Virus record (IMG/VR): IMGVR_UViG_3300042402_002841
Coordinates: 32,001 to 96,000 of that record
Strand: one strand, 5' to 3'
DNA from: a virus
DNA length: 64,000 bases
The translations under genes were made by a program, and so were the position numbers. Below are positions 1 to 60,100 of this stretch, piece by piece (within the stretch, counting starts at the first letter, position 1; the number at the start of each line of letters is the position of its first letter). The notes beneath the pieces were generated by a model that saw only the letters and a list, made by a program, of their open reading frames with translations, was not told the origin of the DNA and ran no database searches.

Positions 1-3000
1 CGAACTGCTTGGTTGGCTAGTTCTTCTGTTGGGTAGTCACCGAGATAGTCACGACCACGGTAAGCGCCCCATGACGGCTTGCCACCAACCGTGTAGCGAC
101 GGACATGGTGCTCGTCACCGCTCTTCATCAGGTTGCGAAGGTTTTGTATCGCTGTTCTGCGAGCAAACGCAGTACCCGCATCAACATCTCTGTTCAGGTG
201 CTCGTCTACTATTTGTGTGAATGCCTTGTAGACACCAACTAATTCCATGTGGTTCATCTTGACTGGTAGTTGCTTTGACCGCTCAAGGAAGTCGTCTATC
301 CACGGCAAATCAATTGTCTGACCGTAAACATCATCTCTGATTGGGTTAACGAGCAGGTAATCCCTACTCTCGTTAACCAACTTCATGAAATCGTCTCTAA
401 TTTCTAGGGGGATATCTATGTTTCTATCAAAACTAGAGGCACTCACAAGACCAGTGCGAATACCTTCTGTTGTTGTTCTGTATGGTTCTGACGGGTTTGG
501 CATTTCACCGAACTCTTTTGCGCCCATCTCTTTGCGCTTAGCGTCAATCTTCTTAATTAAGCGTTGATTGCGAACCCGTGATGCTTCTGCGAGCACAGCA
601 AAACGCGGACCCAATACTGGGTCGTCAGCAAACGACTCCGCAAGCCAAGATGCGTGCCCGAATGCTATTGGGTATTCACCCCTTGAGAGTTCCTCAACAT
701 CAATCCAGTTGAATTGGCTGGCGTCGTCGCCTGCCCGTACAACACTTGATTGTTCGTCACTTATGTCAAAACGAATACCCGCAACACGACCACCCTCTAC
801 GAAGCGAGGGTCCCAGTCTCTAGCGTCTATCTGTCCGAGTATTCTTCTGTCGGTTGCGTCTGTTGGTGAGATATTTACTTCTTCAAGCATCTCTCGTTCC
901 GCTGTGTCGTAGAGGTCTTCGTTTTCGTCTTGTAGACCGCCAGGTAATGATAGTGCGCCACGGAATGGTCCTCTTTTGCGCTCAATAGTGAGGATTTCTT
1001 TCTTTCCGTCATTGCGTGTGCGTACAACAACTACATCGCCAGCCATAACCTTGTCGGTTTTTGACAAAGACCACTCGTTTGTTGACCATTCAATGTCGTC
1101 ATTATCCATACTTTCATCATTAAATGCTTCCAATGAGACCTCGTGACGCTTTGCTCTATCTTCTATCCGTGAAGACGAAGCAAGACCACCAATTCTTGTC
1201 GGAATGTCAAACTTGTCTATTGCGTCATTGTCTGAACGAAGTTGGCGTGTGATTGATGAATATCTGTGTGTCTCAAAAGCAATATCGTCAATTGCTCTAG
1301 TCTTTTCGCCATATGTAGTGGCTTGCTCAAGGTTTTGACGGGCTTGTTTCACGCTGTTTAGCGACTCCGTCATATTGGCTGTTAGTACGGCGTTGCGTTT
1401 GTTCTTTCTCACCAGAGCGTCACTACCATCAAAACTTGAACCCAATGTTGGGTGGATAACCCGTGATTGTTCCAATTCAATAACTTCTAGACCGTTTTTG
1501 GTCTTGACGCTCTTGACGGTGAATTCACCCGCAGTCAATGCCTCAATCGGCATATCTACTATTCTTCCGTCTCTGTCTTTGGCTGGCTTGGTCACGGGTG
1601 CGTTTGCTACAGCAACACCTTCACGCAGTTTAAGTACGACATTTTTCTTGGTAGATGACAGACCTGATGAAATAGCGTCTGGTAAAGAAACTAAATCATC
1701 GGTTTTTGAGTATTTTACAATGTCGTCGTAGTTAGGACTAAATGAGGTTAACGGCATTGAGATTACAGAACCAATTTGTGGTTCAAATAAACCAGAACCC
1801 GTGTCAACATTTCTCACCGAACGATACAGTGGTGCGTCAGAGGAGTATCCGCCCTCTGCGATTTCCTTCATTGCGGAAATGGTGAACATAGTAGAGCGTT
1901 GTACTTCTTCTTTTGATTGTTCGTTTGCGCTGTTTACTGAACCCGAAAGCAGGTATTGGTTCGTATCCGACCCGTAAGAGTTGTCCCTATCTTCTCTGTC
2001 AATGCCATCAATGCCCATTATTTGACTTGAAATAAAACGCATTCTCCAGTTTTCTACCCCATCAACCCATTGTTCGTAAACCTTATCCATAGCCAAAGGT
2101 TTTTCGTTCATTGAGAATGTGTAGTCGCCAATTGTTGCTGTGGTTAGTCCGTCTCGTACATACACTGAATCTTTTTGCGAGTGAGCCCGCTGAGCCTTCG
2201 GGAATGAGTCTTTATGAGAAGAAACTCTCTTATCAACACTAGATATCGCTATTTGTTTCTTTGCGCTACTTGAAGCGAGTCCTTGTCTTGCTTCCCACGG
2301 CTTTTGGTACGGAGAAATATCAGGACTTGATTTCAACCCGAAAACATATGCCATTGCGTGTTCAAGTTCTGGTGTTAGATACTGCGCTCTTATGTTTTGA
2401 TTTGGTGTTGTAAAAAGTACATTTAGTTCCGCAAATTGTTCCTGACGGTTGAAGTTTCCGTACTGAACACGAAGCAAAGGCAATAGGTCGCTTGTTAAAA
2501 ACGGATAAAGAGTATTTATTTCTTCAAGAAGGTCATCACCGAAACTTGGTCTCCACCTATCACGACCACTGCTTCTATCTATAAGCGTAGCGGTGTAGGT
2601 ATTCATCATATCTTCAAAGTCTTGGGCTGCCTTATCACCTAGTGTGCGTTGAACTTGTTTTTTTGCGTTAGCAATGATGTAACCAGAACTTTTTGCTGAT
2701 GAGTAAGGAATAAAAGATGTTTTATCAAAGGAATCTTTAATAAACTTTCCAATATTCATTGCTTCTGGGTTACCAGGAAATAGATACGACATTCTGTCGG
2801 CTCTACTTCCAAGAACTCCACTTTTCTTTGCGTAAGAAAGTCCGACCACCCGACTCCAGAAAGAGTGAGCCCATTCGTGATGAATAATTCCTTCTGGTGA
2901 CAAATCAACATTGAGCAAATACGGAGTGCTACCTGGCTCTGGTACACCATAAGCAATGCGATTGTCAGCAGTTTCAAACATTGAAAGATATGGACTTACT

Positions 3001-5672
3001 TCTCCTGATTGTGAAGGACTCCTAAACGGGCTTGAATCAAAGTTTAAAAATATTCCGAAAGGACCCATTGACCACCCACCAGTTTCACCACTCCTAACAA
3101 GGGGTGACAAAACGGTAGGACCTAGTAATTTTTCTAACTCCCGTGCTTGCTCAATAGCATCAGGGTCTGTGCCAATGAAACCCGAAGAACCAAATGTTCT
3201 GATTTGCCAAGCGAATAATGGAGATGCGTCTAACGCTCTTTTCAAATACTCTCTTACCCTGTCAACACCTTTTGGTGAAAAATCAGGAAACAACATACCA
3301 TTAGGAGAACCATATCCAAGAAATTGTTCTTCAAAAATATCTTTCAATACAGCAAGTTGAGTAGGCGTGAATTGCGAAGCGTCTTGACCGTAAAGAAGGT
3401 TCATCAAGAAAAGATTGAAGGCATCAGTCTCGCTTCTTACGGAAAGAATGTCTGAAATCTCATCATTTGTTGCGTCTTTCAGATAATCACGACCACCTAT
3501 TGGGCTCAACTCTGATTCTGCGCTAAACAAGTTCGGTATTATTCTGTCGCCCGAACTGTCTCGTGGAATAGAGAATGACGCCAAGCCTGCCCGTGACTCG
3601 TCTATGCCACCTGCGATATCACGCTCATACGAGTACGGCTTACCGATAATGTCAAAAATGTCCTCCCGTAAGGCAGGGCTAACTTTGTCTCTGAAACTTG
3701 CGTCGTTAATAAGTATGCCCGAAACGCCCTCTGCGAACGCTTCTGCTGGCATTGTTTGACCGTATTGAGTCATTGCGTGTGGATAGCCGTTCCATCTTTG
3801 TTGTTTGCCGTCTGCGACTCTTTTGCCAAACTTTTTTGCGCCGATTAGGCGACTTGTGAACTTATCTTTTCCGACATCTACGCCTAAGTCGCCGAGAACT
3901 TTCCATACACCCGTGAGACCTGCGTCGTGTTCCCAAGTGTTTGAAAACCAGAATGTAGCAAGCCTTCTTACTTCTGGGTCTGGGTGATTGGTTATTGCGA
4001 GTCTATTTATGTAGTGCCCCCATTCGTGAGCAAGTAACGCATCTTCACGAGTGGACATCATAAACTGTTCGGTGTTTTTTAGTTTAGGAGAGTTAGGTTC
4101 TACGGCGTTTGTAATTCTGCCTGCGACAAGTTCTTGACGAACATCTTGGTTCACAATGATTGCTGGGAAGCCTTCTATCATTGACACTGCGTTAGTGTTG
4201 TCGCCGTCGTCCCATTCGGCACCACGCTTGGTAATCAGTAGCGGTGGAAATCCGTGACGCTCTACTGCTTCTCTAAATAGTCGGTTGTTTGCGAGAGCAC
4301 CCGTGAGTGCTTGGCGCATTTCTTCCACAATTACTGGAGAAAAGTCAAGCGCCTCAACGCCGTCTTTTATGACACTCTTTATTGCGTCTGGTCTAACGCT
4401 CTTGTCGTCATCATCAAATGCCATAAGTGCTTGGTGTTCTTCTAACGCAAGCATTGCTTCCGCTATGTTTGACGGCACAATAAGGCTCGCCATTTCTGCT
4501 GGCTCAAGCCCTCTCATACCACTACCCGTGGTGCTCTGGCGATTTCCACTAGACGACGCTAGACCGCCACTGCGAACGCCTAAGAATACGCTCTCCACCA
4601 TTTCAGCGCCTGCTGTATTCAGTAGTTCTCTAGTCTTTTTGTTTGGAGAGAAGTAGGCGGCGATTGACTCTCCTACAAACTCAACGGGTGAGGTCGTGCC
4701 ATAACCTGTCTTGACAAACGGTATGTCATCAGTTGGTGGGTCTATCTTGTCATCACTAATAGAAGCGTCTGCGAAGTATCTGTAAAAGTCTCGCAGACCA
4801 CCTGTACGAAGCGACTCCTCTGTTTGCCATTGTGGCGTAAGGTAAGACCACGAGTCGCCATACAGAAGGCTTGCTATCTGTCTTGTCTCTGCGTTGGGGT
4901 GATAGTCCGATGTGAGCCTATGTAGGTAGTGTCCCCATTCGTGCGTTACCGTATCCTCTGCGCTTTCACCTGTGACCCACCGCTTGACTCCCCTGATAGG
5001 CAGTGCGTTCATAGTGTTCATAAACCTATTGCCACCTACTGCGCCAATCAACTTTGACAGTTTCTTGTTTGTAGATTTTGAGTCAATAAGTATTGAGTCG
5101 GTCATAAAGATACCTGAGAAACTATTGTCACCTGTAACCATTGCTATTGGTGGCGCACCAAACCTGTCCCACGAAGCCCGTAAGGCAGGGCGGTCATCTA
5201 GCATTTTCTCAACTATCTGACGCAGTTCTTCAACATCATCAGCGTCAAACGATACGGCATCATAGAGGTCATCAATTCGCAGTTGTCCTCTACTGTGTTG
5301 TAGGCGTTGCTCTGTGAATGCGATTGGAGTATCAGGCACGACACGCTCTGCTACTTCTCTATTACTAAGACCTACTAGTTGTGACTTGCCATTAGAAAAG
5401 ATACCCGTGGCACCTCCTGCGCTTGCGAGTCCTCCTCTAATTGTTGAGGCAATGTTAGATAATACTGCTGGTCTCTCAAACGGAGTTGAGTCTTGTACGA
5501 GACCGTCACCGTCGCCGTCTTCAGCGTTCGGGTCATAAACCGCTGCGCCTCTTGCTAGTGAACCAATGTTTGCGCCTAGTGCTTTGTACTGTACGCCTTT
5601 GTCGTTATCTCTTGACGAACGACGACGCATACGACTTGATTCATCAGGATTGATTTCATACGAGAAAGGCAT
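1..5672 (-). CDS. Giant multidomain polyprotein (>1890 aa, C-terminus beyond the window edge): DGDGDG tag, three HExxH zincin metallopeptidase domains, an R-S-E ADP-ribosyltransferase-like domain and a Nudix hydrolase, separated by GLAS motifs
   Basis: Translated manually; absent from the ORF track because no in-frame stop occurs before the edge. ATG at 5672 (MPFSYEINPDESS..). HEWGH ~4929-4943, HEWGH ~4014-4028 and HEWAH ~2865-2879 are each followed by YG-x4-5-E-x3-E. ART-like LYR..TSFS..IEALTAGEF ~1520-1830. Nudix box GLQDENEDLYDTAEREMLEE ~877-936. Confidence 0.88.
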   Translation of the reverse strand, partial: MPFSYEINPDESSRMRRRSSRDNDKGVQYKALGANIGSLARGAAVYDPNAEDGDGDGLVQDSTPFERPAVLSNIASTIRGGLASAGGATGIFSNGKSQLVGLSNREVAERVVPDTPIAFTEQRLQHSRGQLRIDDLYDAVSFDADDVEELRQIVEKMLDDRPALRASWDRFGAPPIAMVTGDNSFSGIFMTDSILIDSKSTNKKLSKLIGAVGGNRFMNTMNALPIRGVKRWVTGESAEDTVTHEWGHYLHRLTSDYHPNAETRQIASLLYGDSWSYLTPQWQTEESLRTGGLRDFYRYFADASISDDKIDPPTDDIPFVKTGYGTTSPVEFVGESIAAYFSPNKKTRELLNTAGAEMVESVFLGVRSGGLASSSGNRQSTTGSGMRGLEPAEMASLIVPSNIAEAMLALEEHQALMAFDDDDKSVRPDAIKSVIKDGVEALDFSPVIVEEMRQALTGALANNRLFREAVERHGFPPLLITKRGAEWDDGDNTNAVSMIEGFPAIIVNQDVRQELVAGRITNAVEPNSPKLKNTEQFMMSTREDALLAHEWGHYINRLAITNHPDPEVRRLATFWFSNTWEHDAGLTGVWKVLGDLGVDVGKDKFTSRLIGAKKFGKRVADGKQQRWNGYPHAMTQYGQTMPAEAFAEGVSGILINDASFRDKVSPALREDIFDIIGKPYSYERDIAGGIDESRAGLASFSIPRDSSGDRIIPNLFSAESELSPIGGRDYLKDATNDEISDILSVRSETDAFNLFLMNLLYGQDASQFTPTQLAVLKDIFEEQFLGYGSPNGMLFPDFSPKGVDRVREYLKRALDASPLFAWQIRTFGSSGFIGTDPDAIEQARELEKLLGPTVLSPLVRSGETGGWSMGPFGIFLNFDSSPFRSPSQSGEVSPYLSMFETADNRIAYGVPEPGSTPYLLNVDLSPEGIIHHEWAHSFWSRVVGLSYAKKSGVLGSRADRMSYLFPGNPEAMNIGKFIKDSFDKTSFIPYSSAKSSGYIIANAKKQVQRTLGDKAAQDFEDMMNTYTATLIDRSSGRDRWRPSFGDDLLEEINTLYPFLTSDLLPLLRVQYGNFNRQEQFAELNVLFTTPNQNIRAQYLTPELEHAMAYVFGLKSSPDISPYQKPWEARQGLASSSAKKQIAISSVDKRVSSHKDSFPKAQRAHSQKDSVYVRDGLTTATIGDYTFSMNEKPLAMDKVYEQWVDGVENWRMRFISSQIMGIDGIDREDRDNSYGSDTNQYLLSGSVNSANEQSKEEVQRSTMFTISAMKEIAEGGYSSDAPLYRSVRNVDTGSGLFEPQIGSVISMPLTSFSPNYDDIVKYSKTDDLVSLPDAISSGLSSTKKNVVLKLREGVAVANAPVTKPAKDRDGRIVDMPIEALTAGEFTVKSVKTKNGLEVIELEQSRVIHPTLGSSFDGSDALVRKNKRNAVLTANMTESLNSVKQARQNLEQATTYGEKTRAIDDIAFETHRYSSITRQLRSDNDAIDKFDIPTRIGGLASSSRIEDRAKRHEVSLEAFNDESMDNDDIEWSTNEWSLSKTDKVMAGDVVVVRTRNDGKKEILTIERKRGPFRGALSLPGGLQDENEDLYDTAEREMLEEVNISPTDATDRRILGQIDARDWDPRFVEGGRVAGIRFDISDEQSSVVRAGDDASQFNWIDVEELSRGEYPIAFGHASWLAESFADDPVLGPRFAVLAEASRVRNQRLIKKIDAKRKEMGAKEFGEMPNPSEPYRTTTEGIRTGLVSASSFDRNIDIPLEIRDDFMKLVNESRDYLLVNPIRDDVYGQTIDLPWIDDFLERSKQLPVKMNHMELVGVYKAFTQIVDEHLNRDVDAGTAFARRTAIQNLRNLMKSGDEHHVRRYTVGGKPSWGAYRGRDYLGDYPTEELANQAV

Positions 5673-5678
5673 TGACTT

Positions 5679-5684
5679 ATTGTA
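5679..5684 (-). promoter_or_regulatory. -10 element (TACAAT) of a probable leaderless promoter for the polyprotein gene
   Basis: TACAAT lies 6 nt upstream of ATG 5672, with no Shine-Dalgarno sequence. Confidence 0.55.
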
Positions 5685-5912
5685 GAACACCTATCACGAT
5701 AGTGTATGAAGGTGTTACGAATGACTAGTGATTGTGTGTGTATTTGTTTGTGTGTGTGTTTTTGTTTGTGTCGTGAGCAGTGCCATACGAGCGTGTGCGG
5801 TTGCGATTACGAATCACTCTTAGCACATCTGTAATCGTTTGTCAAGTATTAGGTGAAACTATTTTTTGACCTCGTGAGCAGGTATCGTTATGCCACTGTC
5901 GTTGGCTTGACT

Positions 5913-5980
5913 TTATCCACAGACTTGTTCACAGCCTGTGGATAACTTTGTCCACACCCTTATACACAGCCTGTGGACAA
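5913..5980. promoter_or_regulatory. Cluster of six DnaA boxes (oriC/datA-like element)
   Basis: TTATCCACA 5913, TTGTTCACA 5925, TGTGGATAA 5937, TTGTCCACA 5948, TTATACACA 5960, TGTGGACAA 5972; 11-12 bp period in non-coding DNA. Confidence 0.8.
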
Positions 5981-6320
5981 CCACACTGAGTGGCTGGCGG
6001 TCACTGTCCGTAACCCACATCTCGGGGCTTTTTCTGGACACATAGGGCGCGCGTGGGGGGACCAGTACAGGTTTTTGAGGTTCCCTCATCATCAGAAAGA
6101 TTTATCTAAACCGCATGGGGTCTGGCGTGGTATTTAAGTCGTGTGTGCGGCGAGCGTGTATGACTCTCGTGTCGTAGTTGTTGTTCTCCACTACCGTATT
6201 CTTGCCGTTTTAGCGTACATGGTAGGGATTACAGGGCCGTTTATCCGTTTTCGCATTTTACAGGGACCCCCTAAAATACAAAATAGCGTTGTGTGGTGGT
6301 GGATAAATTTATCTAATGTG

Positions 6321-6349
6321 TTGTGAAAAAACATCATGAATGGTAGAGT
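6321..6349 (+). promoter_or_regulatory. Sigma70-type promoter, leaderless
   Basis: TTGTGA-17 nt-TAGAGT with a TG extension; ATG 6356 is 6 nt downstream. Confidence 0.55.
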
Positions 6350-6355
6350 ATGTGA

Positions 6356-6868
6356 ATGGCTATTAGAACTTTTGTTATTGCAGATACCCACTGGAGCCAA
6401 GAGAGCGTGTGCGAGTATTCAAAGAAGCACGACAACAAGATGCGTCCGTGGGATTCCGCCGAAGAGATGGACGAGGCGATGATTGAGTTGTGGAACGAAA
6501 CTGTGCGCCCCAAGGATAAGGTGATTCATCTTGGTGATGTGTCGCCCTATGAGAGCGGTGTGCGGATTACTGGCTATTTACATGGTAGGCACACTCTAAT
6601 AAAGGGCAACTACGACAGACTTTCTCTTTCACTGTATGCCGAGTACTTTGATGACATATTTGGCTGCTTGTCTCTGGATAGATTTATCTTAAGTCACATA
6701 CCAGTATCCGACCATCAGAAGTACAGGTATAGAGGGAACATCCATGGACATCTTCACTGCGAGTCCTTAGAAGACCCTTGGTATCAGTGTGTAAGCGTTG
6801 AGCAGACAGAATTTAAACCAATCTTGCTTGATGAGGTAAAAGCACGATACGATGTCCGCAATGCCTGA
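6356..6868 (+). CDS. Calcineurin-like metallophosphoesterase
   Basis: Motifs ADTHW, HLGD, GNYD (GNHD variant), SHIP, HGHLH. Confidence 0.85.
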   Translation: MAIRTFVIADTHWSQESVCEYSKKHDNKMRPWDSAEEMDEAMIELWNETVRPKDKVIHLGDVSPYESGVRITGYLHGRHTLIKGNYDRLSLSLYAEYFDDIFGCLSLDRFILSHIPVSDHQKYRYRGNIHGHLHCESLEDPWYQCVSVEQTEFKPILLDEVKARYDVRNA

Positions 6869-7505
6869 ATTAAACGCTAACACGCCACCCATTCACTGTT
6901 ATGTGAGAGGGAACTTCCTGACAAACCAAAAACATAGTCACGACCTAAAGTTTCCTGTTGTTATCTTTGGTGTTGCGTCTATAACCGACAGGGCACCAGT
7001 TTTCCACTTCTTGATGGAAGATGGGGGGATTTGGTGGAGAGCGCCAATTAATGCTTTCTGCATGTACGAGGACAGCCCTATTGTGGACATTCATGACTTA
7101 GTAATGTGGAACTGCTTCTCTCCGTACATCACCGTTACAACATTTGAACATATGCGAGGTAGGTCAATGACTTATGTTGACCGCCACAGAAAAGATGTGA
7201 ATGGTAAGTACATGTTCACTCTTGACTGGCACCACCCAGATAACAACATTGTTGACTCTAATTACTCAATAAATTCAGCCAACCACAAGTGCGGTCATGT
7301 TATTGAGCGTGAAGATGGCAACTTTGCTATCCAACCAAACAATCGTGTCCACCTTTGGGACCCCTCCCACACAACCAAGAAGGGCGTTCATCTAATTGAC
7401 CGTGAAGTAAGTGACTATATTTGGGGCGTAGAAGACGGCTCTAAATGGCTCACCTCTGACGATAATTTGTATCACTACGACATTCAGGATGTGGAAAATG
7501 GCTGA
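6852..7505 (+). CDS. Hypothetical phage protein
   Basis: 217-aa ORF overlapping both neighbours; no motif recognised. Confidence 0.7.
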   Translation: MSAMPELNANTPPIHCYVRGNFLTNQKHSHDLKFPVVIFGVASITDRAPVFHFLMEDGGIWWRAPINAFCMYEDSPIVDIHDLVMWNCFSPYITVTTFEHMRGRSMTYVDRHRKDVNGKYMFTLDWHHPDNNIVDSNYSINSANHKCGHVIEREDGNFAIQPNNRVHLWDPSHTTKKGVHLIDREVSDYIWGVEDGSKWLTSDDNLYHYDIQDVENG

Positions 7506-7701: not shown

Positions 7702-7761
7702 AATACGCTGTTTATGTGTATTCAAAAAAAAAAATCTTACAATAGATAAGGAAAATAAAAA

Positions 7762-15439: not shown

Positions 15440-16798
15440 TTATGCCGATGGGGCAGCGTCAAAGTCAACTTTCACGAACGACTCTGGACGCTTCACTGCA
15501 AGTGCCAAGCGCTGCTCTGCGAGCACCACGATGGCGTTGCGTACGAAGAAGTCTGAGTGCTGTTCCGAAATGCGGATTGAAGCCTGCTCGCGGTCGTACA
15601 ACTGGGCACCTGTACCGAATGCGCCGACAAGTGCGGTGCCTTCTGGGATTGCAGGGGTCTCAACGACTGGCAAACGCCAAACCTTTGGCTCGCCACCCAT
15701 TGCAACTGAAACTGCAACGAGGTACTGGCCATTGCCATCCTTGGTCAACTCAATGTCTTCCCAGTCGTTCGGGTGCAACACGACGCCTGATGGCTCGTAG
15801 TAAGCAAGGAATGAAAGGGTTGCTGCACGGCGGATTGCGTCTGCCTTGGTGTCTGACATGCCTGCTGTTGGTGAGTAGAAACCATCTGACCATGCGTATT
15901 CCTGGATACCAGTGGTCTGAAGAACACCAGTCAAGTTTTCGCCTGTGCCGTCGCCGTTAAGGATTTGAGCATCTTCCTGAAGACGGAGACCGTACATCAG
16001 TTCGTTGTCAATGATTGAACGCAACTGTGGCTCGTCTGCGAGCACATTGCGGTGTGCTGCTTCCCAGTGAGCGATGGTGCGAACTGGAGCCTGGTGGCCT
16101 TCAAACACCATTGACGACTGTGGCTTAGCAGCGAATGCTGTATTGCCAGAGTTACGCTCAGCAACGGTACCTGCGTTGTTCGTGCCACCACCAGCAGTGG
16201 TGAAGCCGAGCATGCGGAAGTATTCAATAACTGCAGCGGTTGTCGTACGGGTTGGGAAAAGGTCACGGACTCGCTTCACACGCTGTGGTGGGATAACGAT
16301 TGGGTCACGCTGGATTGTTCCGAATTGTGCGTCTGCACCACGGCCCATTGTGCCTGATGGAAGGGCTGAGTAAACATCCTTCACATTAAATGCACCGTGT
16401 GTGGTGAGTGATGAGCCCAATTGGAATGGCGATGGCATGTTTGCACCATTGCGTCCACCTGCGAGGGCCTTGAATTCTGCTGAATCAAGGAACAATTGGC
16501 CGATTGAGTTTGAAGAACCAAGGCTCTTCACTGAGTATCCAGCGGCTGCTGCTGCTGCGATTGACTCTGCTGGTGCCTGTGAGCCCCAGTTGTCAACGGT
16601 GTTCATTGCCTCAAGACCCTCAATGAGGCCCTTGATTTCCTTGATGTCTTGCATGTTCTTGTCAAATGCGCTCTTTTGCTGAGCGTTGACAACAACAGTT
16701 CCATCTTCAATACGGAATGAGTCTGCAATTGCCTTGTTGTCGGCCATCTTGGCACGAAGGGCGGATTGCAATTCTGTAAGTCTTGCTTGGTCTGACAT
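15440..16798 (-). CDS. Major capsid protein, HK97 fold, with N-terminal delta/scaffold region
   Basis: Coiled-coil N-terminus; VRTIAHW..LADEPQLRSII..EDAQILNGDGTG; LHPNDW; FVRNAIVVLAEQRLALAVKRPESF. Confidence 0.95.
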   Translation of the reverse strand: MSDQARLTELQSALRAKMADNKAIADSFRIEDGTVVVNAQQKSAFDKNMQDIKEIKGLIEGLEAMNTVDNWGSQAPAESIAAAAAAGYSVKSLGSSNSIGQLFLDSAEFKALAGGRNGANMPSPFQLGSSLTTHGAFNVKDVYSALPSGTMGRGADAQFGTIQRDPIVIPPQRVKRVRDLFPTRTTTAAVIEYFRMLGFTTAGGGTNNAGTVAERNSGNTAFAAKPQSSMVFEGHQAPVRTIAHWEAAHRNVLADEPQLRSIIDNELMYGLRLQEDAQILNGDGTGENLTGVLQTTGIQEYAWSDGFYSPTAGMSDTKADAIRRAATLSFLAYYEPSGVVLHPNDWEDIELTKDGNGQYLVAVSVAMGGEPKVWRLPVVETPAIPEGTALVGAFGTGAQLYDREQASIRISEQHSDFFVRNAIVVLAEQRLALAVKRPESFVKVDFDAAPSA

Positions 16799-35281: not shown

Positions 35282-38200
35282 CTAATTTTTATTAATAAAT
35301 GTAGACATTGCGGCTTCGGAAACTTTTTCAAGCAGTTTTGAATACCAATCAATTCTCTTGTCTCCGCCTATTTCAATTTGGTTATCAAGAGCAAACATCA
35401 AACCTTCAAGAACAAGGTCTGCTTCATCGTCTGTCAAGTAGATACTTCCAACATTGGTTCTTCTGCTGCCAGTCTTTGATGCTTCATTTCTTCTAATAAC
35501 TTCTTGAAGTTTGCTTAGACCATCTTCAGCCTTTTTGTTCTTTGCTTTTTGTGCTGCTCTAATTTCTTTTTGTAAAGAAGTTTCAATATCTTTAAAGAAT
35601 GTGGCTTCATCGGTAATCATTGCTTTTGGTCTTGATGTGGAAGCAAGTCCAACTCTTGACCTCTTACCTTTGTCTGCCTCCTGCTTGCTTCTCATTTCTT
35701 CAATAACTTGACGAGCAACTTCGCTGATTTTCCTCATCTCGTTATCGCGTCTGGCGTTAGATTGAGGCATTTCTCTAGTTCCAGGTCTTGGTCTGTCAGC
35801 ATCTCTTGAGCGTGAGCGCGAGGCGAGACCACCAGAACGAGGTAAGTCATCAATAATCCATGGGTCCTCGGCATACTTGGCTTGCGTTTTGGAAAGTTGT
35901 CCAAGAAGTCTATTTGCTGAAGAAACACTAAGTTTTTCGTACTTATTTTCGCCAGGAGAGTTTGTCTCAATGTAATCCTCAAGTGCTTCAATTGCGTCAT
36001 TAATTGACTTCTTTGTCATATCCCTATCGCCAAGTAAGTCGTTAACTGTTTCCCAAATATCTTCAGAAACAATGTCAATTTCGCCATCAAAATCAAGTTC
36101 ATTAAGTTTATTTTTAATGTCTTGAATTTTTTCTTGGTAAGACTGTAACTCTTCTTCTCTTTGTTCTTTGCCTTCTTTGGCGCTTGCTTTTGGCTTGTAT
36201 GTTTTTTGTGAACCTTGAGTTTTTTCTTTTTCTTGTTGACGCTTTTTTCTTGCGTCACCTTGTCTTTCAATCTCTCTTGGGGAAATTTCTCTTGCCTGCT
36301 CTTCTCTTTCTTCGTTTCTCCGAGCACGACGCTGTTCTGGAGTCATAGAGCGTCTTTCTTCACGCTCCATGTCTTCCATAACTTTTTTAATTGCTCCCTG
36401 ATATGCGGCTTGAGACATCTTTTCGTTTTTGTCTTTAACTTTTTCTGGGTTACCTTCGTACATTAACCATTCAAATTTTTCATCATTTGTCAATTCATCC
36501 CAGTTATCTGGTTTTGCATCATCAAGGGAAAGTCCATCAAATTTAGTATTTTCTGCACCCCTAGTTGAGCCCCTGCCAGTGCCAAAATTGCCTCTTTCGT
36601 TGGCTGAAAGACCAACATCTCCGAGCCCTCTTGCACCAATTCCTCCTGGTCGCGCAGTTCTTCTCTCTTTATCGTTGTCACCAAATCCACCAGAAGATTC
36701 AAGACCAACTCTTCCCCTTCTTCCAGAACCACTGGCAGAACCAGGCCCAAAGTTTTGGTACATGGTGCGGAGTCGTTTCCACTTTGATGCTGCCAATTGA
36801 CCATCGTTTGCTTCAAAATCCCTAAGAGCATCTTGTACGAGTTGTAGATTGTTCGCTCTACCACTTCTTGCCCAGAAAATATAATCTTTCTGCATTGCTT
36901 CAGTTATGTCTGCTGGTGCACCGTTATTGGGTTTTCTTCCTTTATTGGTTGATGCAAGCCCTCCGCCCCTAATATTGAGGCTGGAGTATTCACCGTCATT
37001 GGATTCTGCTGCCTGTTCAAGAACACCAAGAAGGTCTGATGAAACCATTCCGCTTCTTGACTTTGATTGCTCAATTGCTTTAATCAAATCTTCGTACTCG
37101 TTATCATCAATTGAGAATTTGCCATTATTTGATTTTTCAAGTTTTTCAGAAACCGCTTTAAGAATATTTTTGTTTTCAGCAGTACGAGAAAGAAGTTCAA
37201 CCTCGTCCCTGAGTGAACCGATTTCGTCTTCCGTAAGTTCAATATCAAGTTTCTTGTGAGGATTTATTGTTCCACTTTGACTGGAGAATGCTCTTGTTTT
37301 TTTAATACGCCTTGCCCCTGCTTGTCCTGAAAGCCTTGTTCCAGACCTCTCAAGTGCTTCAGTGCTGTAATAACCATCTTTTGATTTCTTTGTTTTCTTC
37401 AAAGAATCAATCAGTTCGTCAATCGCTTTTTTATCGCCTTCATTATCAACTGCACCAAAGTTATTCATTCTGGTCAAAGTGTCAACATAATTATCAATTT
37501 CATCATCAGTCATTGGGATTGCATCATTTGCAACACTACTGTCATCAATTTTGTCAATTATATTTTTAAGGATTTCCATATCCTCATCTGAGCCAACACC
37601 GCCAACTTGCGAATCATCAAGATATTTTTCTAAAACATTTTGAAGTTCGCCATACTCTTCAAGAGTCATATCCATCTGTCGGTTTTCGGAAGCCAAACCT
37701 TCTCTTACCGCACGAGCATTTCTTCCTCTGTCTATGTTTTCGGATGCTGCATCGCCGACTGGGTCGTCAGCCATTCCTCTTCGTGCGCCTGGATTTCTTG
37801 GTCCAAATGCTTCGTCATAGTCTGTGTCGTCATCAAAATTTGAACTAGAGGCAAGACCTGAACGACCTTCTCTATCTTGTCGCTCTTGTCTTTTCTTTCT
37901 AGTAATTCCAATTTCACGCTGACGAAGTTTTGATGGCTCCATCTTGAGTAATTCTCCAGTTTGCTCAAGCGTTAGTCCACTTCTTAAATAAAGAAGGTCA
38001 TCTTCATCGTTTTCTTTTCTTAATTTTGCTGTCAATCTTCTCTCTGTTCTGCGAACTTCTCTCGGCGACATTCCAAATAGTTCAGCAGTATCACGAACAC
38101 TCAAGCCAGAGGCTCTGTACATGAGAAGGTCCATGTCTGAATTTGCCCCAGACTCAGAGTTTTGACTTAGTCTTCTAAATTCTCTATTTGCAGAAGATTT

Positions 38201-41200
38201 TGCAACCCTTGCACCACTCAGGTTGTACTTTTCAGCAATTTCTTTTGCTGACATTCCAGATAGAAAATCTCTAAAAATATCATTATCAGGAATTTGAGTA
38301 CCGTCTTCTGAAACGGTGCGAACTGGTCTTTGCAGGTTTCTTTCACCCCGTGTAGATGCTCTACTCTGTGAAGCCAATCCACCTCTACGGATATCATCTG
38401 GAACATATTGAGCAGGTTTTCCGCCTTCTCTAATAACACCACCGTCAGGAACGCCAGTTAGTTGTTCAATTTCATCATCGCTTAAACCAAGTTCTCTAAG
38501 TTTTTTGAAAACATTTTGGTCAAATTGCGCTCTTCTTTCGCGAGCCTCAGTTGGGTCAACATTTCCTCTTTCATCTCTCTGAATCTGACCATCTCGGCCA
38601 AGCATTGTGCCGTCTCCACGGCGAGATGTTGAAGCAAGACCTCCAGTAAGTGTCCGTTTTGCTCTTACTCTTTCTTGTAAGAATTCAGAATTTAGCCTTG
38701 CATCTTCAAGTTCATCCATAACCCCCTCATTTAGCCCGTTTTTAAAATAATCTTCCCAAAGCGAATTGATTTGTGGGTCGTTTGGATTTTCTTCAAATCC
38801 TTTTTTAGTTGCTCTTTGCAACTCTTTAGAAAAATCCTCTAAATCAATTGATGGGTCTAGTTCTATTATGTTTTCAACTTCAAACCAAAAATCCGCTTCG
38901 CTCATATCTGGCTCTCCGCTTTGAAGTGCCTGAATTAAATTTTCTTTTTTCTGAGACGATTCTTTTTTAGCGTCTTGAATTTCCTTATCAGTTGGTGGTT
39001 TGTTTGCCGACAGGCGACGAGCAGTTTTAAATACCGAATCTGACCATTCATCAACCGTTTCTTCAATCAGTTCATTAATTTTGTCTTCTTGTTTTCTAGA
39101 AGCGTTTTTAGGCATCATTCTTTCTGCAAGCATGCCTCTAACTGCGTCTGTTAAAGCCCTACCAACATCTTCGGATATATATCTATCAAAATTTCTTTCG
39201 CTGCTTTGCAGATTGAGATAATCATCAAAATCTCCGTTTTTTATTGCATCAAGGAAATTTTTTTTAGTTTCAGACAGCATTTCTTCGTCGTCATCAAGAT
39301 TTGAAATTATGTTTTTAAGTATGTCTGCATGTTTATCTGGGATACCGCTTCTATCAATAAATTTGTCCGACACGGGCTTTGAACCAGGACCGCTAACAAT
39401 TTCTCCCCTAAGAACTTCTGGTTTTTTTTCTACAGAAGTTGAAGCAAGTCCGCTTCTTCTCTTTTTTGCGAAGATGGATTCTGGATTCCATGAATCTGGG
39501 TTTTCCCAAGTTCTTTCGCTAAAAAAATCATAAACTTCGTCGTCAAATACTTTTTCTAAGCCCGCCTTACTGACAACCCCTTCATATTTTTCGTTAACCG
39601 CTACACCATATTGTTCTAGCAATCCAGCAAGAATATCTGAATCTTTTTCGGTGCCGTTTGCTAATTCAGTAAGTTTTTCTTTCATCTTTGTTTTGTCTTT
39701 AAGATTTAAGATGTCTAAAACTTCTTTTGAATTTTCTAAATCAAACTCTAAATCGTCTTGATAAAACTTACGAAGACCTTCAGCACTTTCAACGATGTCG
39801 TCAAGAAGTTTTTCATCAGAGCGAACAGCGTCAAGCATCGTTGTGCCCACTCTGCTTCCTGGTTCTCCCCCTGAATAATGAAAAAACGCTCTAGCCAACT
39901 CTTCGTTAGTTCTGTCTTCAAACCATTCTTCGTGGTCTTGTTCACGGGGGGTTAAACCTCTATATGAGGCTAGACCTTGTCTTTTTGGCTCTTTGGGAGT
40001 AGGGGTTTGTCTTCCTTGATTAAATGCACGAGTTGCTGCTTCAGCATCTACTCGGCCACCAGTGGACCTGTCGTTAACACCTGGGATTGCAGGGCGCTTA
40101 AATGGTGTTCCTTCTTGGACTACACCGTCTCCGTCACCATCCCATGCGTTTGGGTCAAACCTTGCCGCCCCTCTGGCGGCTCTGCCCAATTTTCCCAAGC
40201 CTCCGCTTAGCGTGCGCCCCAGGGCTTTTTCGGCCACGCTAATGGCCTCTATAAATTCGCTAGTGACACCAGATGTAACCACGATTCCGTCTTCTGTTAC
40301 ATGCGATTCAACTCTGTGGTAATCAAAAATTGGGTCAAGAAGTTGTTTTGTTTGAAAAGCGTTCTCAATAGGAACTGGGATTATATAGTCGCTCTTAACT
40401 TCAACATCTTTTTCTGCGGACGCAATTACTTCTTGCAGGTTTTCAAGAATGGCCTTGAGTCTTGACATGTTCTTACCACTAAGGGCACGCCCAACTTTTA
40501 CATCAAGTGAGTCAGAAATAATATTTGCTAGGTCTGCAAAATCTTCATCAAAAGACCATTTTTCGTCATTCTCGTAAGACTTTGGCATAATTATGCCATT
40601 CTCACCCATGTCGTCGCCCATATAGGCATTTCCTTGAGGTTTTACCTGCATTGGCATTGAAGGCATTTGTGAAGGAACAACGACTCGTGAGCCAGATTCT
40701 TCCGAAGATGGCATGTAAACGGTTTGCACAGAAACCTTTTCTGGCTTACCAAACATGAACTCTCTACCTGTGTAGTGGTACGCAACTCTGTAGGTTGTAG
40801 GCGCACCGTCTGGTGTCATTCTGTCAAAAATTACTGTATTTTCTTCTGCGAGACGAACTTTTACTGGAGCACCAGCACGGACAGCCAATTCAATCTCTAA
40901 TTGATTCTTGCGCTCATCTCCCACTCTTGGCTTATTTGCTTCAAGAATGTTAGGGGTTGGCCTTTGGTGTCTGTGCGGTATTCCACGGTTGCTTTGCAAC
41001 ATCAACATTCCGCCCTTGGAATCATCAATCATGGTTGAATCATCTGACTTTACTGAAATTGTTCCAGTCAACTGGTTGGCACCATGTAGAACTGGCGAAA
41101 CTTCGTAAAGTTCTACTTCTTTTAAGATGTTGGCCTGAAGATTGGGGTCAAAAATTGAATCAAGAGTCTTATAGCCGATTGACCATTCTTGTTCTTGTCC

Positions 41201-41551
41201 AAAAAAAGCCACATTGGCAAATGCTTCTCGTCCTTTTTCGGAACCTAAATTAAATTGAACTTTCGCATAAAGTCCACCAATTCCAGCCGTAAGCATTTTT
41301 GAAGGAAGTCTTCTGTCTCCAGGAGCAACTTCGTAGATTTCTAGCACCTTACCAATAGGGTCATTCCAGTTGTGCCCCCAAACAACACGAGGCTTTCTTC
41401 TTGTAAGGCTCTTTGTGAAGGCTCCAGAAACAAGAACATCTCCAACAGAATCTTTATTTCCAATACCAGCCACAAAGCATTCAACCATACCCTGTGCTTC
41501 GTCAATGTTGAACTGGCCTGGAATAGCCTTGAATTCAATGTTCTGGTTCAT
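35282..41551 (-). CDS. HK97-family prohead protease fused to a ~1900-aa GLAS-punctuated extension
   Basis: N-terminal DSVGD..GAF, WGHNW..PIG, WSIGY, LKEVELYEVSPV..GAN; then DGDGDG tag, 9 GLAS plus 1 GLES, and tandem sigma-region-4-like HTHs. Confidence 0.9.
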   Translation of the reverse strand: MNQNIEFKAIPGQFNIDEAQGMVECFVAGIGNKDSVGDVLVSGAFTKSLTRRKPRVVWGHNWNDPIGKVLEIYEVAPGDRRLPSKMLTAGIGGLYAKVQFNLGSEKGREAFANVAFFGQEQEWSIGYKTLDSIFDPNLQANILKEVELYEVSPVLHGANQLTGTISVKSDDSTMIDDSKGGMLMLQSNRGIPHRHQRPTPNILEANKPRVGDERKNQLEIELAVRAGAPVKVRLAEENTVIFDRMTPDGAPTTYRVAYHYTGREFMFGKPEKVSVQTVYMPSSEESGSRVVVPSQMPSMPMQVKPQGNAYMGDDMGENGIIMPKSYENDEKWSFDEDFADLANIISDSLDVKVGRALSGKNMSRLKAILENLQEVIASAEKDVEVKSDYIIPVPIENAFQTKQLLDPIFDYHRVESHVTEDGIVVTSGVTSEFIEAISVAEKALGRTLSGGLGKLGRAARGAARFDPNAWDGDGDGVVQEGTPFKRPAIPGVNDRSTGGRVDAEAATRAFNQGRQTPTPKEPKRQGLASYRGLTPREQDHEEWFEDRTNEELARAFFHYSGGEPGSRVGTTMLDAVRSDEKLLDDIVESAEGLRKFYQDDLEFDLENSKEVLDILNLKDKTKMKEKLTELANGTEKDSDILAGLLEQYGVAVNEKYEGVVSKAGLEKVFDDEVYDFFSERTWENPDSWNPESIFAKKRRSGLASTSVEKKPEVLRGEIVSGPGSKPVSDKFIDRSGIPDKHADILKNIISNLDDDEEMLSETKKNFLDAIKNGDFDDYLNLQSSERNFDRYISEDVGRALTDAVRGMLAERMMPKNASRKQEDKINELIEETVDEWSDSVFKTARRLSANKPPTDKEIQDAKKESSQKKENLIQALQSGEPDMSEADFWFEVENIIELDPSIDLEDFSKELQRATKKGFEENPNDPQINSLWEDYFKNGLNEGVMDELEDARLNSEFLQERVRAKRTLTGGLASTSRRGDGTMLGRDGQIQRDERGNVDPTEARERRAQFDQNVFKKLRELGLSDDEIEQLTGVPDGGVIREGGKPAQYVPDDIRRGGLASQSRASTRGERNLQRPVRTVSEDGTQIPDNDIFRDFLSGMSAKEIAEKYNLSGARVAKSSANREFRRLSQNSESGANSDMDLLMYRASGLSVRDTAELFGMSPREVRRTERRLTAKLRKENDEDDLLYLRSGLTLEQTGELLKMEPSKLRQREIGITRKKRQERQDREGRSGLASSSNFDDDTDYDEAFGPRNPGARRGMADDPVGDAASENIDRGRNARAVREGLASENRQMDMTLEEYGELQNVLEKYLDDSQVGGVGSDEDMEILKNIIDKIDDSSVANDAIPMTDDEIDNYVDTLTRMNNFGAVDNEGDKKAIDELIDSLKKTKKSKDGYYSTEALERSGTRLSGQAGARRIKKTRAFSSQSGTINPHKKLDIELTEDEIGSLRDEVELLSRTAENKNILKAVSEKLEKSNNGKFSIDDNEYEDLIKAIEQSKSRSGMVSSDLLGVLEQAAESNDGEYSSLNIRGGGLASTNKGRKPNNGAPADITEAMQKDYIFWARSGRANNLQLVQDALRDFEANDGQLAASKWKRLRTMYQNFGPGSASGSGRRGRVGLESSGGFGDNDKERRTARPGGIGARGLGDVGLSANERGNFGTGRGSTRGAENTKFDGLSLDDAKPDNWDELTNDEKFEWLMYEGNPEKVKDKNEKMSQAAYQGAIKKVMEDMEREERRSMTPEQRRARRNEEREEQAREISPREIERQGDARKKRQQEKEKTQGSQKTYKPKASAKEGKEQREEELQSYQEKIQDIKNKLNELDFDGEIDIVSEDIWETVNDLLGDRDMTKKSINDAIEALEDYIETNSPGENKYEKLSVSSANRLLGQLSKTQAKYAEDPWIIDDLPRSGGLASRSRSRDADRPRPGTREMPQSNARRDNEMRKISEVARQVIEEMRSKQEADKGKRSRVGLASTSRPKAMITDEATFFKDIETSLQKEIRAAQKAKNKKAEDGLSKLQEVIRRNEASKTGSRRTNVGSIYLTDDEADLVLEGLMFALDNQIEIGGDKRIDWYSKLLEKVSEAAMSTFINKN

Positions 41552-57118: not shown

Positions 57119-60100
57119 ATGGCTGAAGCGAAACTTACAATTGACATTGATGTTGATGGTGTAGCAAAAGCAGTAACAGGCCTAGCCAGTGTTAATAGGG
57201 CTGTAAGAAACATTGACAGCAGAACAAATGGTCTTGCTACAACCGCTCGTGGGGCTGGACAAACAATACAGACCAGCGTTAATAAGTGGAAAAAGTCTTT
57301 TGACCAGTTTGACAAAATGGTCAAGATGGTGGGAACCGTAGGCTTAAAAGGCCTTTCAATGGCGCTCAAATTTGCAACTTTTGAAATGGCCGCTATGGGT
57401 GCAGCCATGCTTGCCGTGCATGGTGCCTTTATCTTGGGTAATGCAGCAATGAAGGCTATGAAGGCCACCTTGGGGCCTCTTGCTGCTGGTATGACTGGGA
57501 TTGTCGCAGCAGCAGCCGCAGCATCTGCGGCAATCAGGGAGCAGCAAGCCGCAATGTGGGCTTACAAAAATAACTCCGCCCCCCAGTTTGGTTCTGGTTT
57601 AAATCAAGCAAGAATGGTGATGCGTGCCCTTCATACTGATGTTGAATTGTCAACAGTCGGCATTGAGAATTTAAACAAAGCCTATGGGACCATTTCAAAA
57701 TCTTCAACCTTTACAGCACAGAGTCAAAACCTTCTTAAAGGATTAATGGACTTTGCTTCAGCGGGTCAACCAATTGAAGAAGGAATAACAAAAGCAGCAG
57801 AATTGGTTGCTTTGCTCCAAGATTCAAAAAAGTCTTTTTCTGAAGCAAAATCATCAGCAGAACAACTTTTTCCAGATAAAAAAGCCGTTCAAAAAGCGAT
57901 GAAAGACTTAAAAATAAATACAAAAGAAGGTCTTCAAAAAGCAATCACAAGCGGTGAATTGGCAAAGGCTGCTGGTGTTGAAGGTCAGTTTGATGCAGTT
58001 TCTGGAACCTTGATGAACAGAGTAAAAGGCTATTTTACTATTTTGAGAAATCAATTAGGAGACCTTGGTCAACCACTTCTTGAACCAATAAAAGAAGCAG
58101 CAAATTCAATATTTAATATTCTTCGTCGTGGGTTTGTAAAAATTTCTGGTAACACACAAAAATTTGGCATGGGCTCAATGCTTGAAGGTTTAGTCAATAT
58201 GGTTGACAAACTCACTACATGGTCCACTGATTTGATTAATGAAAATATTTCATCAGTTGAAGGCATGTTTGAGAAAATGGCTGGATGGTGGAAGGATTTT
58301 AGATACGGCTGGAATGAAACGCTTGACAAATTAAGACCGTTTATTGATGGTGCTCGCGTAATTGAAAAAGCATTTGGTGAAGTGTGGCGACATGTAAAAG
58401 ATATTGTTGGTTCAGGTTTTGGTCAATTCAATGAATGGCTTCAACAAAATGAAGAAACGGTAGTTGAATTTGGTGGAAAAATCGGAGACCTTTTTACTTC
58501 AATTATGAAGTTTCAAATGGAAATGAAAAAAATCATTCAAGACCTAATGCCCTTTATCAACAATGTTATTGGTGGCGTGTCGCAAATGGTTGACCAGATG
58601 ACCAGTTTTATAAAAGCGCTTCGGTCAATTACTGGCGGTGGCGTTATTGGAGCGCTTGCTAGTCTTCTTGCAATTAGGGGCGCGTTTGGTGCAATGAAAA
58701 ACACCAAAGGCGGATGGATGGCAAAACAAACAATAACAACTCAACCAATAAACGCTCAGCAAGTTGTTATTAACACTCCATCTGTGGTCCCTGGCGGTGG
58801 AAGACTTGGAACCACTGGCGCTGCAATGCGTAATGGGGTACCAGCAGGACCTGGCGGTTTAGCAAGCGCTACTCCCCGATATGGCCTAGCCAGTAGTGGG
58901 TTTGGGCCAACAAATTATCCACAATATTATGCGCATGGAGGTCCTGGGGGCTTAGGTGGTACTCGTGGAGCGCCCCTTCCTGGACCCGCTATACCAATGG
59001 TTGGCCAACCAGGTTATCAACCAAGCCTTATTCATGGTCCGCAAAGAACCCGAGGAAGAAGAGCAGCCGTAGGCGCTTACAACAGGTTTAGAAACTTTTC
59101 TTACAACACATTTACGATGCCTGCCGAATCAGACGAAATGTATCAACAGAGACGGGCTACAGAAACAAGAATTGATAGACACGGAAACGAAGTTTATACT
59201 CGTTCAGCAAAGTTTAGACAAAGACAAGCAGCCCAAAGAGCGGCTCGTTCTGGACCGTTCATGTCTAAGGGGTATAAGGCTTTAGGGCAGTTTCAAGGTT
59301 CTCAAGGTGTGAAGATGGGAACTGGTCTTGCTCTTGGAGCAATGTCTCAATTTGCACCAGCAGAAGCACAGGGCGCGCTTGCTCTTGGTGGAATGGTTGG
59401 CATGATGAACCCGCTCGCTGGTATTGGTGTTGCTGGTCTTGGTACTGCTATGAAATCCAAAACAACAACAGGAGGAATGCTTTCTGGTGCTGCTGGTGGA
59501 GCAGCGATGGGTGCGATGGTTGGAAGTATTATCCCAGGACTTGGGACAGCGGCAGGTGCAGCGGCAGGCGCATTGATTGGTGCCGTAGGTGGCGGAATCA
59601 TGGGGTCTATTAATAAAAATAAAGAACAAGTAAAGGCCGCAAGGGAAGCAGCATCAAACGCTGGACAAAGCATTATTAATGGAGTTCTTTCTGGTGTTCT
59701 TGATGGAGTAAGGAAAGAAAGCGGCACTAAAGGTAGAACCGTTCTAAGAGATGCACTTCCAAATATTAGAGCAAAACAAGAATCAGCCCTCAGCATCATT
59801 AATCAAGCACCAGAAAAAAGAGGAAATTACTTCGGAATAATGCCAGACGCATTGGACCGTGGTGCAACTGGTGGTCAAATTGGTCTTGTTATGGAAAACT
59901 ACACCAAAAAAAGAATGCCAGGAATATTGAGAAAAGCAATTGGCGCAGCAACGATGAGTATGGATATTGCTGGAAATCTTGCTTATGGAACAGTTAGCAA
60001 ACTGGGTATGAAAAGCCTTACTGACAACCGTGTTCTCAACCCCCTTGGATACTCAACCAATAACCTTAAAGATGTTGATAAGAGAAAACAAGAAGAGGCT

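Follow-up and report, generated by a model that had tools for sequence, protein, structure and literature searches.

A giant, probable phage polyprotein whose modules are set apart by a GLAS peptide shared with the S78 prohead-protease fusion of the same contig

The stretch analysed (hereafter, the window) comprises 64,000 nucleotides, bases 32001-96000 of one 132,392-bp virus contig (IMG/VR record IMGVR_UViG_3300042402_002841). At its first bases lies part of a minus-strand gene for a polyprotein of 3112 amino acids (aa), in which three zincin-type metallopeptidases, an ADP-ribosyltransferase (ART) fold, a Nudix hydrolase, a DUF3626 domain and further modules are set apart by a recurring tetrapeptide, GLAS. 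The same peptide is found in the S78 prohead-protease fusion and the tape-measure-like protein of the contig, and its form changes by lineage. The polyprotein is probably cut into separate enzymes, to judge from its sequence features. That it is a virion-targeted polyvalent effector polyprotein, cut at this shared site most likely by the S78 protease, is given about an even chance.

The gene was located as follows.

Window 3..5672, minus strand: polyprotein gene, in-window part, aa 7-1896 (open reading frame listing and translation).

In the open reading frame (ORF) listing, the minus-strand frame is open for 1896 aa (window 3..5690) and runs off the window start. A sequence-only reading had proposed a polyprotein of more than 1890 aa, to be abandoned if an in-frame stop or a chimeric assembly came to light or if the segments did not fit the folds named for them. 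Followed into the contig, the frame extends 3,648 bases past the window start to genome 28352, where it ends at a stop codon, giving 3112 aa (genome 28352..37690) with no in-frame stop on the way; 40 relatives of 1745-4885 aa on independent contigs speak against an assembly chimera. The start was placed at the ATG at window 5672, as that reading had it, because the relatives begin with MPFSY and M7 and P8 are invariant (22 aligned sequences). With the single protein as query no relatives were retrieved, and with an alignment as query 31 loci were. The sole blastn match of window 1-8000 among 50,697 phage records covered 190 bases of a purine-synthesis gene. The gene had also been described as remote from the head operon and served by its own promoter; the distance, about 10 kb, was confirmed, but a sigma-70-type promoter scan of window 5500-6500 returned no minus-strand site and two plus-strand sites (shuffle mean 1.8). 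Window 5691-6355 is a 665-bp gene-free gap between divergent genes, and an AC-rich low-complexity tract in it adjoins the polyprotein start.

The leader, the motif copies and the modules are arranged in the order given below, where pLDDT stands for the predicted local distance difference test.

Window 5433..5672, minus strand: leader, aa 7-86, with an invariant K36-A-L38-G39 site (window 5574-5585) and the tag core.
Window 5466-5549, minus strand: tag core DPNAxDGDGDGxVQ, aa 48-75, in the leader.
Window 5421..5432, minus strand: GLAS 1, aa 87-90, in model segment 1-10, pLDDT below 50.
Window 4566..5420 (after GLAS 1), minus strand: module A, zincin, aa 87-375, HEWGH at aa 250, invariant E337/E341.
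Window 4554..4565, minus strand: GLAS 2, aa 376-379, within the segment aa 373-384 of pLDDT below 50.
Window 3588..4553 (after GLAS 2), minus strand: module B, zincin paralogue of A, aa 376-701, HEWGH at aa 555, invariant E650/E654.
Window 3576..3587, minus strand: GLAS 3, aa 702-705, within the segment aa 686-705 of pLDDT below 50.
Window 2283..3575 (after GLAS 3), minus strand: module C, enlarged third zincin paralogue, aa 702-1136, HEWAH at aa 938, invariant E1084/E1088.
Window 2271..2282, minus strand: GLAS 4, aa 1137-1140.
Window 1188..2270 (after GLAS 4), minus strand: module DE, ART fold like that of C3, VIP2, Vis and Tre1, aa 1137-1501.
Window 1176..1187, minus strand: GLAS 5, aa 1502-1505, the preceding aa 1490-1501 having pLDDT below 50.
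Window 453..1175 (after GLAS 5), minus strand: module F, Nudix hydrolase, aa 1502-1746, Pfam domain aa 1553-1682, Nudix box at aa 1585.
Window 441..452, minus strand: GLVS, aa 1747-1750, GLAS at this place in relatives.
Window 3..440 (after GLVS), minus strand: module G, aa 1747-1906, cut by the window edge, no family found.
Beyond the window (L001:10680-11972), minus strand: module H, aa 1907-2337, no family found.
Beyond the window (L001:9495-10574), minus strand: module K, aa 2373-2732, no family found.
Beyond the window, minus strand: module L, DUF3626 (Pfam PF12294), aa 2733-3112.

The motif positions first reported (5421, 4554, 3576, 2271 and 1176 for GLAS, 441 for GLVS) were identical on recheck, and five further GLAS copies follow past the window at aa 1907, 2338, 2367, 2373 and 2733. 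The folds named for the segments held up. The accompanying proposal of one enzyme per GLAS-delimited segment applies to five of the six segments in the window, but not to the sixth, module G, which had no Pfam, PHROG or PDB-sequence match.

HEWGH, HEWGH and HEWAH at aa 250, 555 and 938, the only three HExxH motifs of the polyprotein, mark the segments that had been read as peptidases 1 to 3, and all three proved to be zincin-like. The AlphaFold2 model of A-C (1050 aa) has a mean pLDDT of 80.9. In VIA comparisons, module A was matched to the catalytic domain of anthrax lethal factor (4dv8; Z 10.6, root-mean-square deviation 3.8 over 164 residues) and module B to PPEP-1, with a middling Z of 7.4. 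The two modules align with each other end to end (blastp, 1e-16), and the nearest protein-atlas clusters of module B are Peptidase_M90/ATLF (score 0.94). The profile of module C was matched to that of A/B by hhalign (98.5% probability, E 3.7e-15), with HEWxH and the YG..E.FAE helix aligned; its fold is assigned by profile homology only, the VIA rows barely covering model residues 620-1050. The residues H250/E251/H254 with E337/E341, H555/E556/H559 with E650/E654, and H938/E939/H942 with E1084/E1088 are invariant in 34 sequences, the two downstream Glu of each module being candidate metal ligands. At E<=1, Pfam recovered nothing from aa 1-1896 besides Nudix and no peptidase model, neither ATLF (PF07737) nor Peptidase_M90 (PF06167) being matched; the third-position module of a distant relative, P0041, reached 26.3 bits against a cut-off of 27.4 in the same ATLF/Peptidase_M90 test. 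PHROGs likewise recovered only Nudix among the modules. A profile of 22 full-length relatives gave ten matches at E<=1 among all PDB sequences, nine to Nudix and one to a lectin by chance. A Foldseek search with the 1050-aa model gave no match at E<=0.001, and the weak ones (E>=0.2) were again to lethal factor and PPEP.

The segment first described as ART-like is modelled with a pLDDT of 83 and a predicted template modelling score of 0.81, and the Foldseek PDB matches listed for it are nearly all ADP-ribosyltransferases: Vis (5.5e-5, probability 1.0), Tre1, ExoS, CDTa and iota. VIA Z values were 9.6 (6drh), 9.1 (4xzk) and 9.0 (6gn8) over model residues ~45-275. A viral library gave a match at 9.9e-12 and an ADP-ribosyltransferase of a Gordonia phage at 2.4e-9, with head-morphogenesis fusions also among the matches. 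No match to Pfam PF03496 (ADPrib_exo_Tox) was obtained at E<=1. R1290 (PLYR) and E1389 are at least 90% conserved and E1383 is invariant, with P1313/L1314/F1317 flanking a T-S-F-S stretch; as candidate catalytic residues, Arg, T-S-F-S and Glu stand in the expected R-S-E order, the context of the second Glu being A-G-E and not E/Q-x-E. The Nudix assignment of module F is confirmed by Pfam (48.5 bits against a cut-off of 21.1) and by an intact box GX5EX7REUXEE at aa 1585; the nearest solved sequences are 2fml (MutT/Nudix) and 2qjt (NadM-Nudix).

Past the window, module L carries DUF3626 (33.8 bits against a cut-off of 27, ~aa 2915-3006). SopF of Salmonella has transferase activity. Residues 178-338 of this protein have been assigned to DUF3626 (PMC6682159). 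Module H starts with a coiled-coil-like part followed by conserved YVVHWGA, YGGRY and GETHLVGKH blocks, which presumably resemble the H-Y-E type of NAD-binding signature; a search for its standalone forms retrieved three proteins, all on short contigs. Module K carries a signature, H-D-x-x-G-H-x-G-x-G-R-G-x-D-R-H-G-E-W-A-N, that is invariant in 4/4 sequences, and no family was detected for it. It was considered as a fourth zincin and rejected, with 0.14% probability against the A/B profile in hhalign and no HExxH beyond the three already named.

GLAS is the commonest tetrapeptide of the polyprotein, with 10 copies against 0.12 expected; none of 20,000 shuffles of its residues produced more than 3. 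Over the whole contig (133 non-nested ORFs, 40,448 aa) 29 copies were counted against 1.44 expected, and six large proteins hold 28 of them: ten are in the polyprotein, nine in the protease fusion, three in the tape-measure-like protein, and two each in proteins of 1744, 1298 and 794 aa. The surrounding consensus is R-x-G-L-A-S-[STR]-[ST], and 17 of the 29 copies have its Arg, two positions ahead of the Gly. The 33 GL[AV]S sites use all six Leu codons and both Ser codon families; because the codons vary so freely, the constraint must lie on the peptide and not on the DNA.

The copies fall at the joints. Three model segments with pLDDT below 50 (aa 87-96, 373-384 and 686-705) lie between confident domains and each include a GLAS, and a fourth (aa 1490-1501) ends directly before the GLAS at 1502. 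The motif residues are 0.53-1.0 identical in 17 relatives and exceed both flanks at 7 of 9 joints. At the first joint G[LFM][AS]S is present in 33/33 aligned rows with residues, and at aa 702 in 31/34. The ART domain contains an internal GLSS, at aa 1343, which does not mark a joint.

The nearest 36 relatives, P0002-P0037, all begin with tag-A-B-C in this order, and it is the later modules (Nudix, G, H, K, L and other unidentified ones) that are missing, duplicated or reordered, with motif-bounded ends. K precedes H in P0016, P0021 and P0029, Nudix follows H in P0031, H is doubled in P0003, and an extra module in P0007 has a GLAS on either side. The longest ORF seen, L024:2-17995 (+) of genome G006, is open at its first base and encodes at least 5998 aa with five HExxH motifs; it carries 13 copies of RL[AS]SG at a spacing of 200-1200 aa, and its record lies outside the paired set described below.

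The other proteins that concern the motif, and the neighbouring head genes, are the following.

Window 35282..41551, minus strand: S78 prohead-protease fusion, 2089 aa, S78 at the N-terminus, tag at aa 462-488, nine GLAS.
Window 57119..61672, plus strand: tape-measure-like protein, 1517 aa, GLAS at aa 21, 580 and 589.
Window 17001-19385, minus strand: motif-bearing head-region giant, 794 aa.
Window 19750-23646, minus strand: motif-bearing head-region giant, 1298 aa.
Window 28506-33740, minus strand: motif-bearing head-region giant, 1744 aa.
Window 15440..16798, minus strand: major capsid protein of HK97 fold, its helical N-terminal part followed by a motif-like K-SLGS-S (aa 91-96).
Window 41663-43708: portal (PHROG/Pfam).

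PHROG and Pfam searches also identified a terminase, a tail sheath and the tape-measure-like protein in the contig. The source is an uncultured contractile-tailed phage; its capsid protein is closest to its counterparts in Gordonia and Brevibacterium myophages, with which it shares 46-48% identity. The identity of the S78 domain is given by Pfam PF04586 (40.8 bits against a cut-off of 21) and phrog_80 (1.4e-26), and its H60 and S124, which we take to be the catalytic residues, are invariant in 8/8 sequences. The nearest capsid protein among cultured phages is that of Gordonia phage DalanDe, whose 1633-aa 'capsid maturation protease' is free of GLAS-like repeats; the cultured relatives therefore do not share the motif.

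Several features were seen in the other motif-bearing proteins. The 794-aa protein probably forms a further packaged effector chain, since DUF3721 and a Zeta-toxin/AAA_33 kinase-like domain (aa 386-530, E 1e-9) occur in it together with three GL[AV]S. In the protease fusion, aa 1142-1168 (window 38048-38128, minus strand), within a segment delimited by the motif, gave borderline matches to Sigma70_r4_2/helix-turn-helix (25.2 bits against a cut-off of 25.7) and may represent a small DNA-binding or sigma-like cargo. In the 1744-aa protein, which has two GLAS, a DUF2510 repeat (aa 1329-1356) was the sole family match. The tandem GLAS pair at aa 580/589 of the tape-measure-like protein adjoins a lysin-like stretch (phrog_1047, aa 495-832).

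The form of the separator changes within genomes in step with that of the protease fusion. Records carrying both proteins were taken from IMG/VR, seven paired records being covered, and G001-G003, being mutually close, were counted as one event. Where a residue is named below, it is the one following the Gly of the motif.

G000: polyprotein 11/11 Leu; protease fusion 9/9 Leu.
G001: polyprotein 8/10 Phe; protease fusion 5/8 Phe (and one Met).
G002: polyprotein 7/8 Phe; protease fusion 6/7 Phe.
G003: polyprotein 4/6 Phe; protease fusion 4/6 Phe.
G008: polyprotein GLSSG twice and SLSSG once; protease fusion GLSSG 11 times.
G009: polyprotein [GS]LSSG three times; protease fusion GLSSG eight times.

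The tape measure shifts as well, from GLAS at aa 21, 580 and 589 in G000 to GLAS at 43 and GFAS at 608 and 619 in G001. In the unpaired G010, a 4740-aa fusion repeats R[LFM]SSG about 20 times; this S78 fusion (L057:161-14380, plus strand) also has one HExxH near its end. The S78 ORF of G007 measures just 508 aa (L058). The role of GLAS as a module separator, as first proposed, is thus upheld by the conserved aligned joints, by the gain, loss and reordering of whole modules at the motif, by the low-pLDDT linkers and by the co-variation with the protease fusion.

A second shared element, the Ca-loop-like tag ...RGAxxFDPNAxDGDGDGxVQ[ED]xTP[FY]xRPA, precedes the first GLAS in three proteins and is itself preceded by K-[AS]-L-G. 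In this contig it is carried by the polyprotein, the protease fusion (aa 462-488) and the 1298-aa protein, and phrog_7924 matches all three; this match and the tag comparisons bear out the claim that the polyprotein and head-region proteins carry one tag. A search of 1.84 billion representatives gave 174 tag proteins (E<=0.001), of which 145 were newly listed. These 145 have a median length of 994 aa, 12 contain an S78 domain, and the top tetrapeptides, in S78 fusions and HExxH giants alike, are GLAS, GFAS, GLSS, GMRS and GLRS. The K-A-L-G site does not co-vary with the separator, KALG being present in both G000 and G001.

The tag and the motif shared with the protease-scaffold fusion suggest that the polyprotein may be delivered with the virion into the host. 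The tag would bring it into the procapsid along with the fusion bearing the same tag, and there a phage protease, most likely S78, would cut the disordered R-x-G-L-A-S-[ST] linkers that form nearly every joint. Once freed, the enzymes would exit together with the DNA and, early in infection of the next host, would target proteins and NAD/ADP-ribose chemistry. The choice of S78 is favoured by its fusion to about 1900 aa with nine motif copies. Cutting of many substrates at a consensus by prohead proteases is established in giant phages (PMC5694885, PMC10052503), and here one short motif occurs in several head proteins including the protease/scaffold (28 GLAS in six proteins). The gp5 protein of HK97 is cut by a protease of the S78 family just before S-L-G-S: the full chain (3qpr) reads ...FNKSLGSDADS and the mature one (1ohg, 282 aa) begins with SLGS. 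The K-SLGS-S patch of the capsid protein varies to SVYGS, GLGAS, QLSS and QLTS in relatives that are otherwise 77-92% identical.

Several observations weigh against processing by S78. The capsid patch tracks the Leu/Phe difference imperfectly, with GLGAS in G003 despite its mostly Phe separators and no patch in G007, and phmmer aligns the HK97 cut site to another conserved capsid peptide, S144-ALPS. The co-varying motif of the tape measure is also unfavourable, because tails normally assemble away from the prohead protease. For S78 itself, identity of the GLAS genome with the GF[AS]S genomes is 89-90%, and with the lineages using GLSSG and R[LF]SSG it is 78-81%; since the zincin modules diverge far more (~22-50% identity), specificity could as easily sit there. 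About 10 kb also separate the gene, with its 665-bp gap, from the head operon. The A-B joint is without the motif in P0007 and P0008, so that the motif is not obligatory at every joint, and a cleavage product has been seen for no phage of this group. A complex prediction of the S78 domain with a 36-aa GLAS linker scored 0.00 against a mark of 0.32 and, having no controls, speaks neither for nor against binding. As an observation on the capsid protein, its S-A-L-P-S-G (aa 144-149) is conserved in 6/6 lineages and is one of two candidate maturation sites.

Alternatively, the three zincins might cut the polyprotein itself and the other motif proteins, at a bond such as G|[LFM], whether inside the infected cell, within the capsid or once injected, with S78 limited to capsid maturation. 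HExxH and a downstream Glu are invariant in all three modules (34 aligned sequences), many zincins typically cut ahead of a hydrophobic residue, and a soluble or co-ejected protease would explain the tape-measure sites too. The greater divergence of the zincins across lineages with different motif variants points the same way, and autoproteolysis by metallopeptidases has been proposed for polyvalent proteins (PMC5512222), although processing of this kind at a defined motif is not on record in the literature consulted. However, the protein richest in the motif is the S78 fusion, with 9 to about 21 sites and no HExxH in G000, G008 and G009, and three conserved paralogues exceed what self-processing needs. 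Cutting by the zincins is regarded as fairly unlikely. An uncut motif, serving as a hinge, docking peptide or modification site in a protein that acts or travels as one 3112-aa chain, is considered slightly less likely still. Cutting at the motif has not been observed, the peptide is rich in small residues, like flexible linkers, it is dispensable at the one joint in P0007 and P0008, and the virion RNA polymerase of N4 is reported to be packaged unprocessed (PMC5512222). A fixed hydrophobic residue between an invariant Gly and Ser, uniformity within a lineage and presence in the scaffold-like protease fusion better fit a recognition site. Finally, the exchange of modules at the motif might mean that the repeats are DNA-level recombination junctions for cassettes, or the ORF might be an assembly artefact; given the freely varying codons, the 40 long relatives on independent contigs and the confident folds across the joints, this is hardly credible.

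Taken as a virion-targeted effector chain cut by S78, the polyprotein may be compared with several known systems. Anthrax lethal factor and PPEP-1 are zincins of MEROPS family M34. The fold matches to these and to C3/VIP2/Vis/Tre1 and HExxH with a Glu are shared with the present modules, and the R...S...E order probably so; the identity is only 7-19%, no Pfam model of these families is matched at E<=1 and the targets are presumably bacterial. In RNA viruses, polyproteins are chains of enzymes separated by a short virus-specific peptide and cut at a 3C/3CL-type consensus. The present polyprotein differs in belonging to a DNA phage, in that its protease, if S78, stands outside the chain, and in its likely purpose, the delivery of pre-made enzymes and not economy of expression. 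The proteases T4 gp21, phiKZ gp175 and SPN3US gp245 belong to a different family and cut after Glu. In those systems many head proteins, scaffold and cargo among them, carry one short motif, a targeting peptide is cut off and the cargo reaches the host by ejection, much as proposed here; their cargo proteins, however, are each encoded by a gene of their own and mostly undergo one trimming or a few, in place of a chain of 9-10 enzymes. With HK97 gp4/gp5 the phage shares the S78 protease family, the capsid fold (E 6e-51 to 3qpr/1ohg) and a small-Leu-small-Ser pattern, whereas HK97 has a small protease and one substrate site per capsid protein, against a fusion of ~1900 aa and 28 motifs in six proteins.

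The protein belongs to the polyvalent proteins of phages and conjugative elements described by Iyer, Burroughs, Anand, de Souza and Aravind in 2017 (PMC5512222), in which one giant protein of a phage or plasmid holds several (2-15) effector-type domains, with a zincin hub, sometimes in several copies, and ART- or Nudix-type partners. The present one holds three zincins, an ART fold, Nudix and DUF3626 in 3112 aa. Delivery with the virion and possible proteolytic release were predicted for the class in the same work. The joint motif is a difference: in the text available of that paper none is mentioned and the word 'linker' occurs 0 times, its supplementary lists possibly including the family. 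The motif here also recurs in the S78 fusion, the tape measure and other head giants, and its form differs between lineages. In the literature on polyvalent proteins, prohead-protease cleavage, capsid maturation fusions and DUF3626 (supplements excluded), a GLAS-type separator was not found. What appears to be new is the combination: an enzyme chain with one lineage-specific separator, common to an HK97-type protease-scaffold fusion and a tape measure, and cassette-like modules.

Polyvalent proteins have been known since 2017, and whether and how they are taken apart has so far been a guess. Here the joints can be read from the sequence through a peptide that is shared with, and shifts with, the fusion partner of the head protease itself, and the motif gives a rule to delimit unknown injected enzymes in metagenomic phages, such as modules G, H and K; among the relatives, ORFs reach at least 5998 aa. 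The presence of ART, Nudix and DUF3626, two or three NAD/ADP-ribose modules, suggests a pre-packed kit against NAD-based defences or targets of the host. More tentatively, with a probability clearly short of even, one HK97-type head protease might read a lineage-specific code (G-[LFM]-[ASR]-S, GLSSG or R[LF]SSG) for everything that is ejected, from scaffold and cargo polyproteins to the tape measure. If such a private code and single protease exist, effector modules would behave as plug-in cassettes, and any enzyme lying between two code peptides would be loaded into the virion, freed and injected. Such a scheme would parallel, in DNA phages, the polyprotein strategy of RNA viruses, and it would offer a ready means of recognising the anti-host enzymes that uncultured phages inject.

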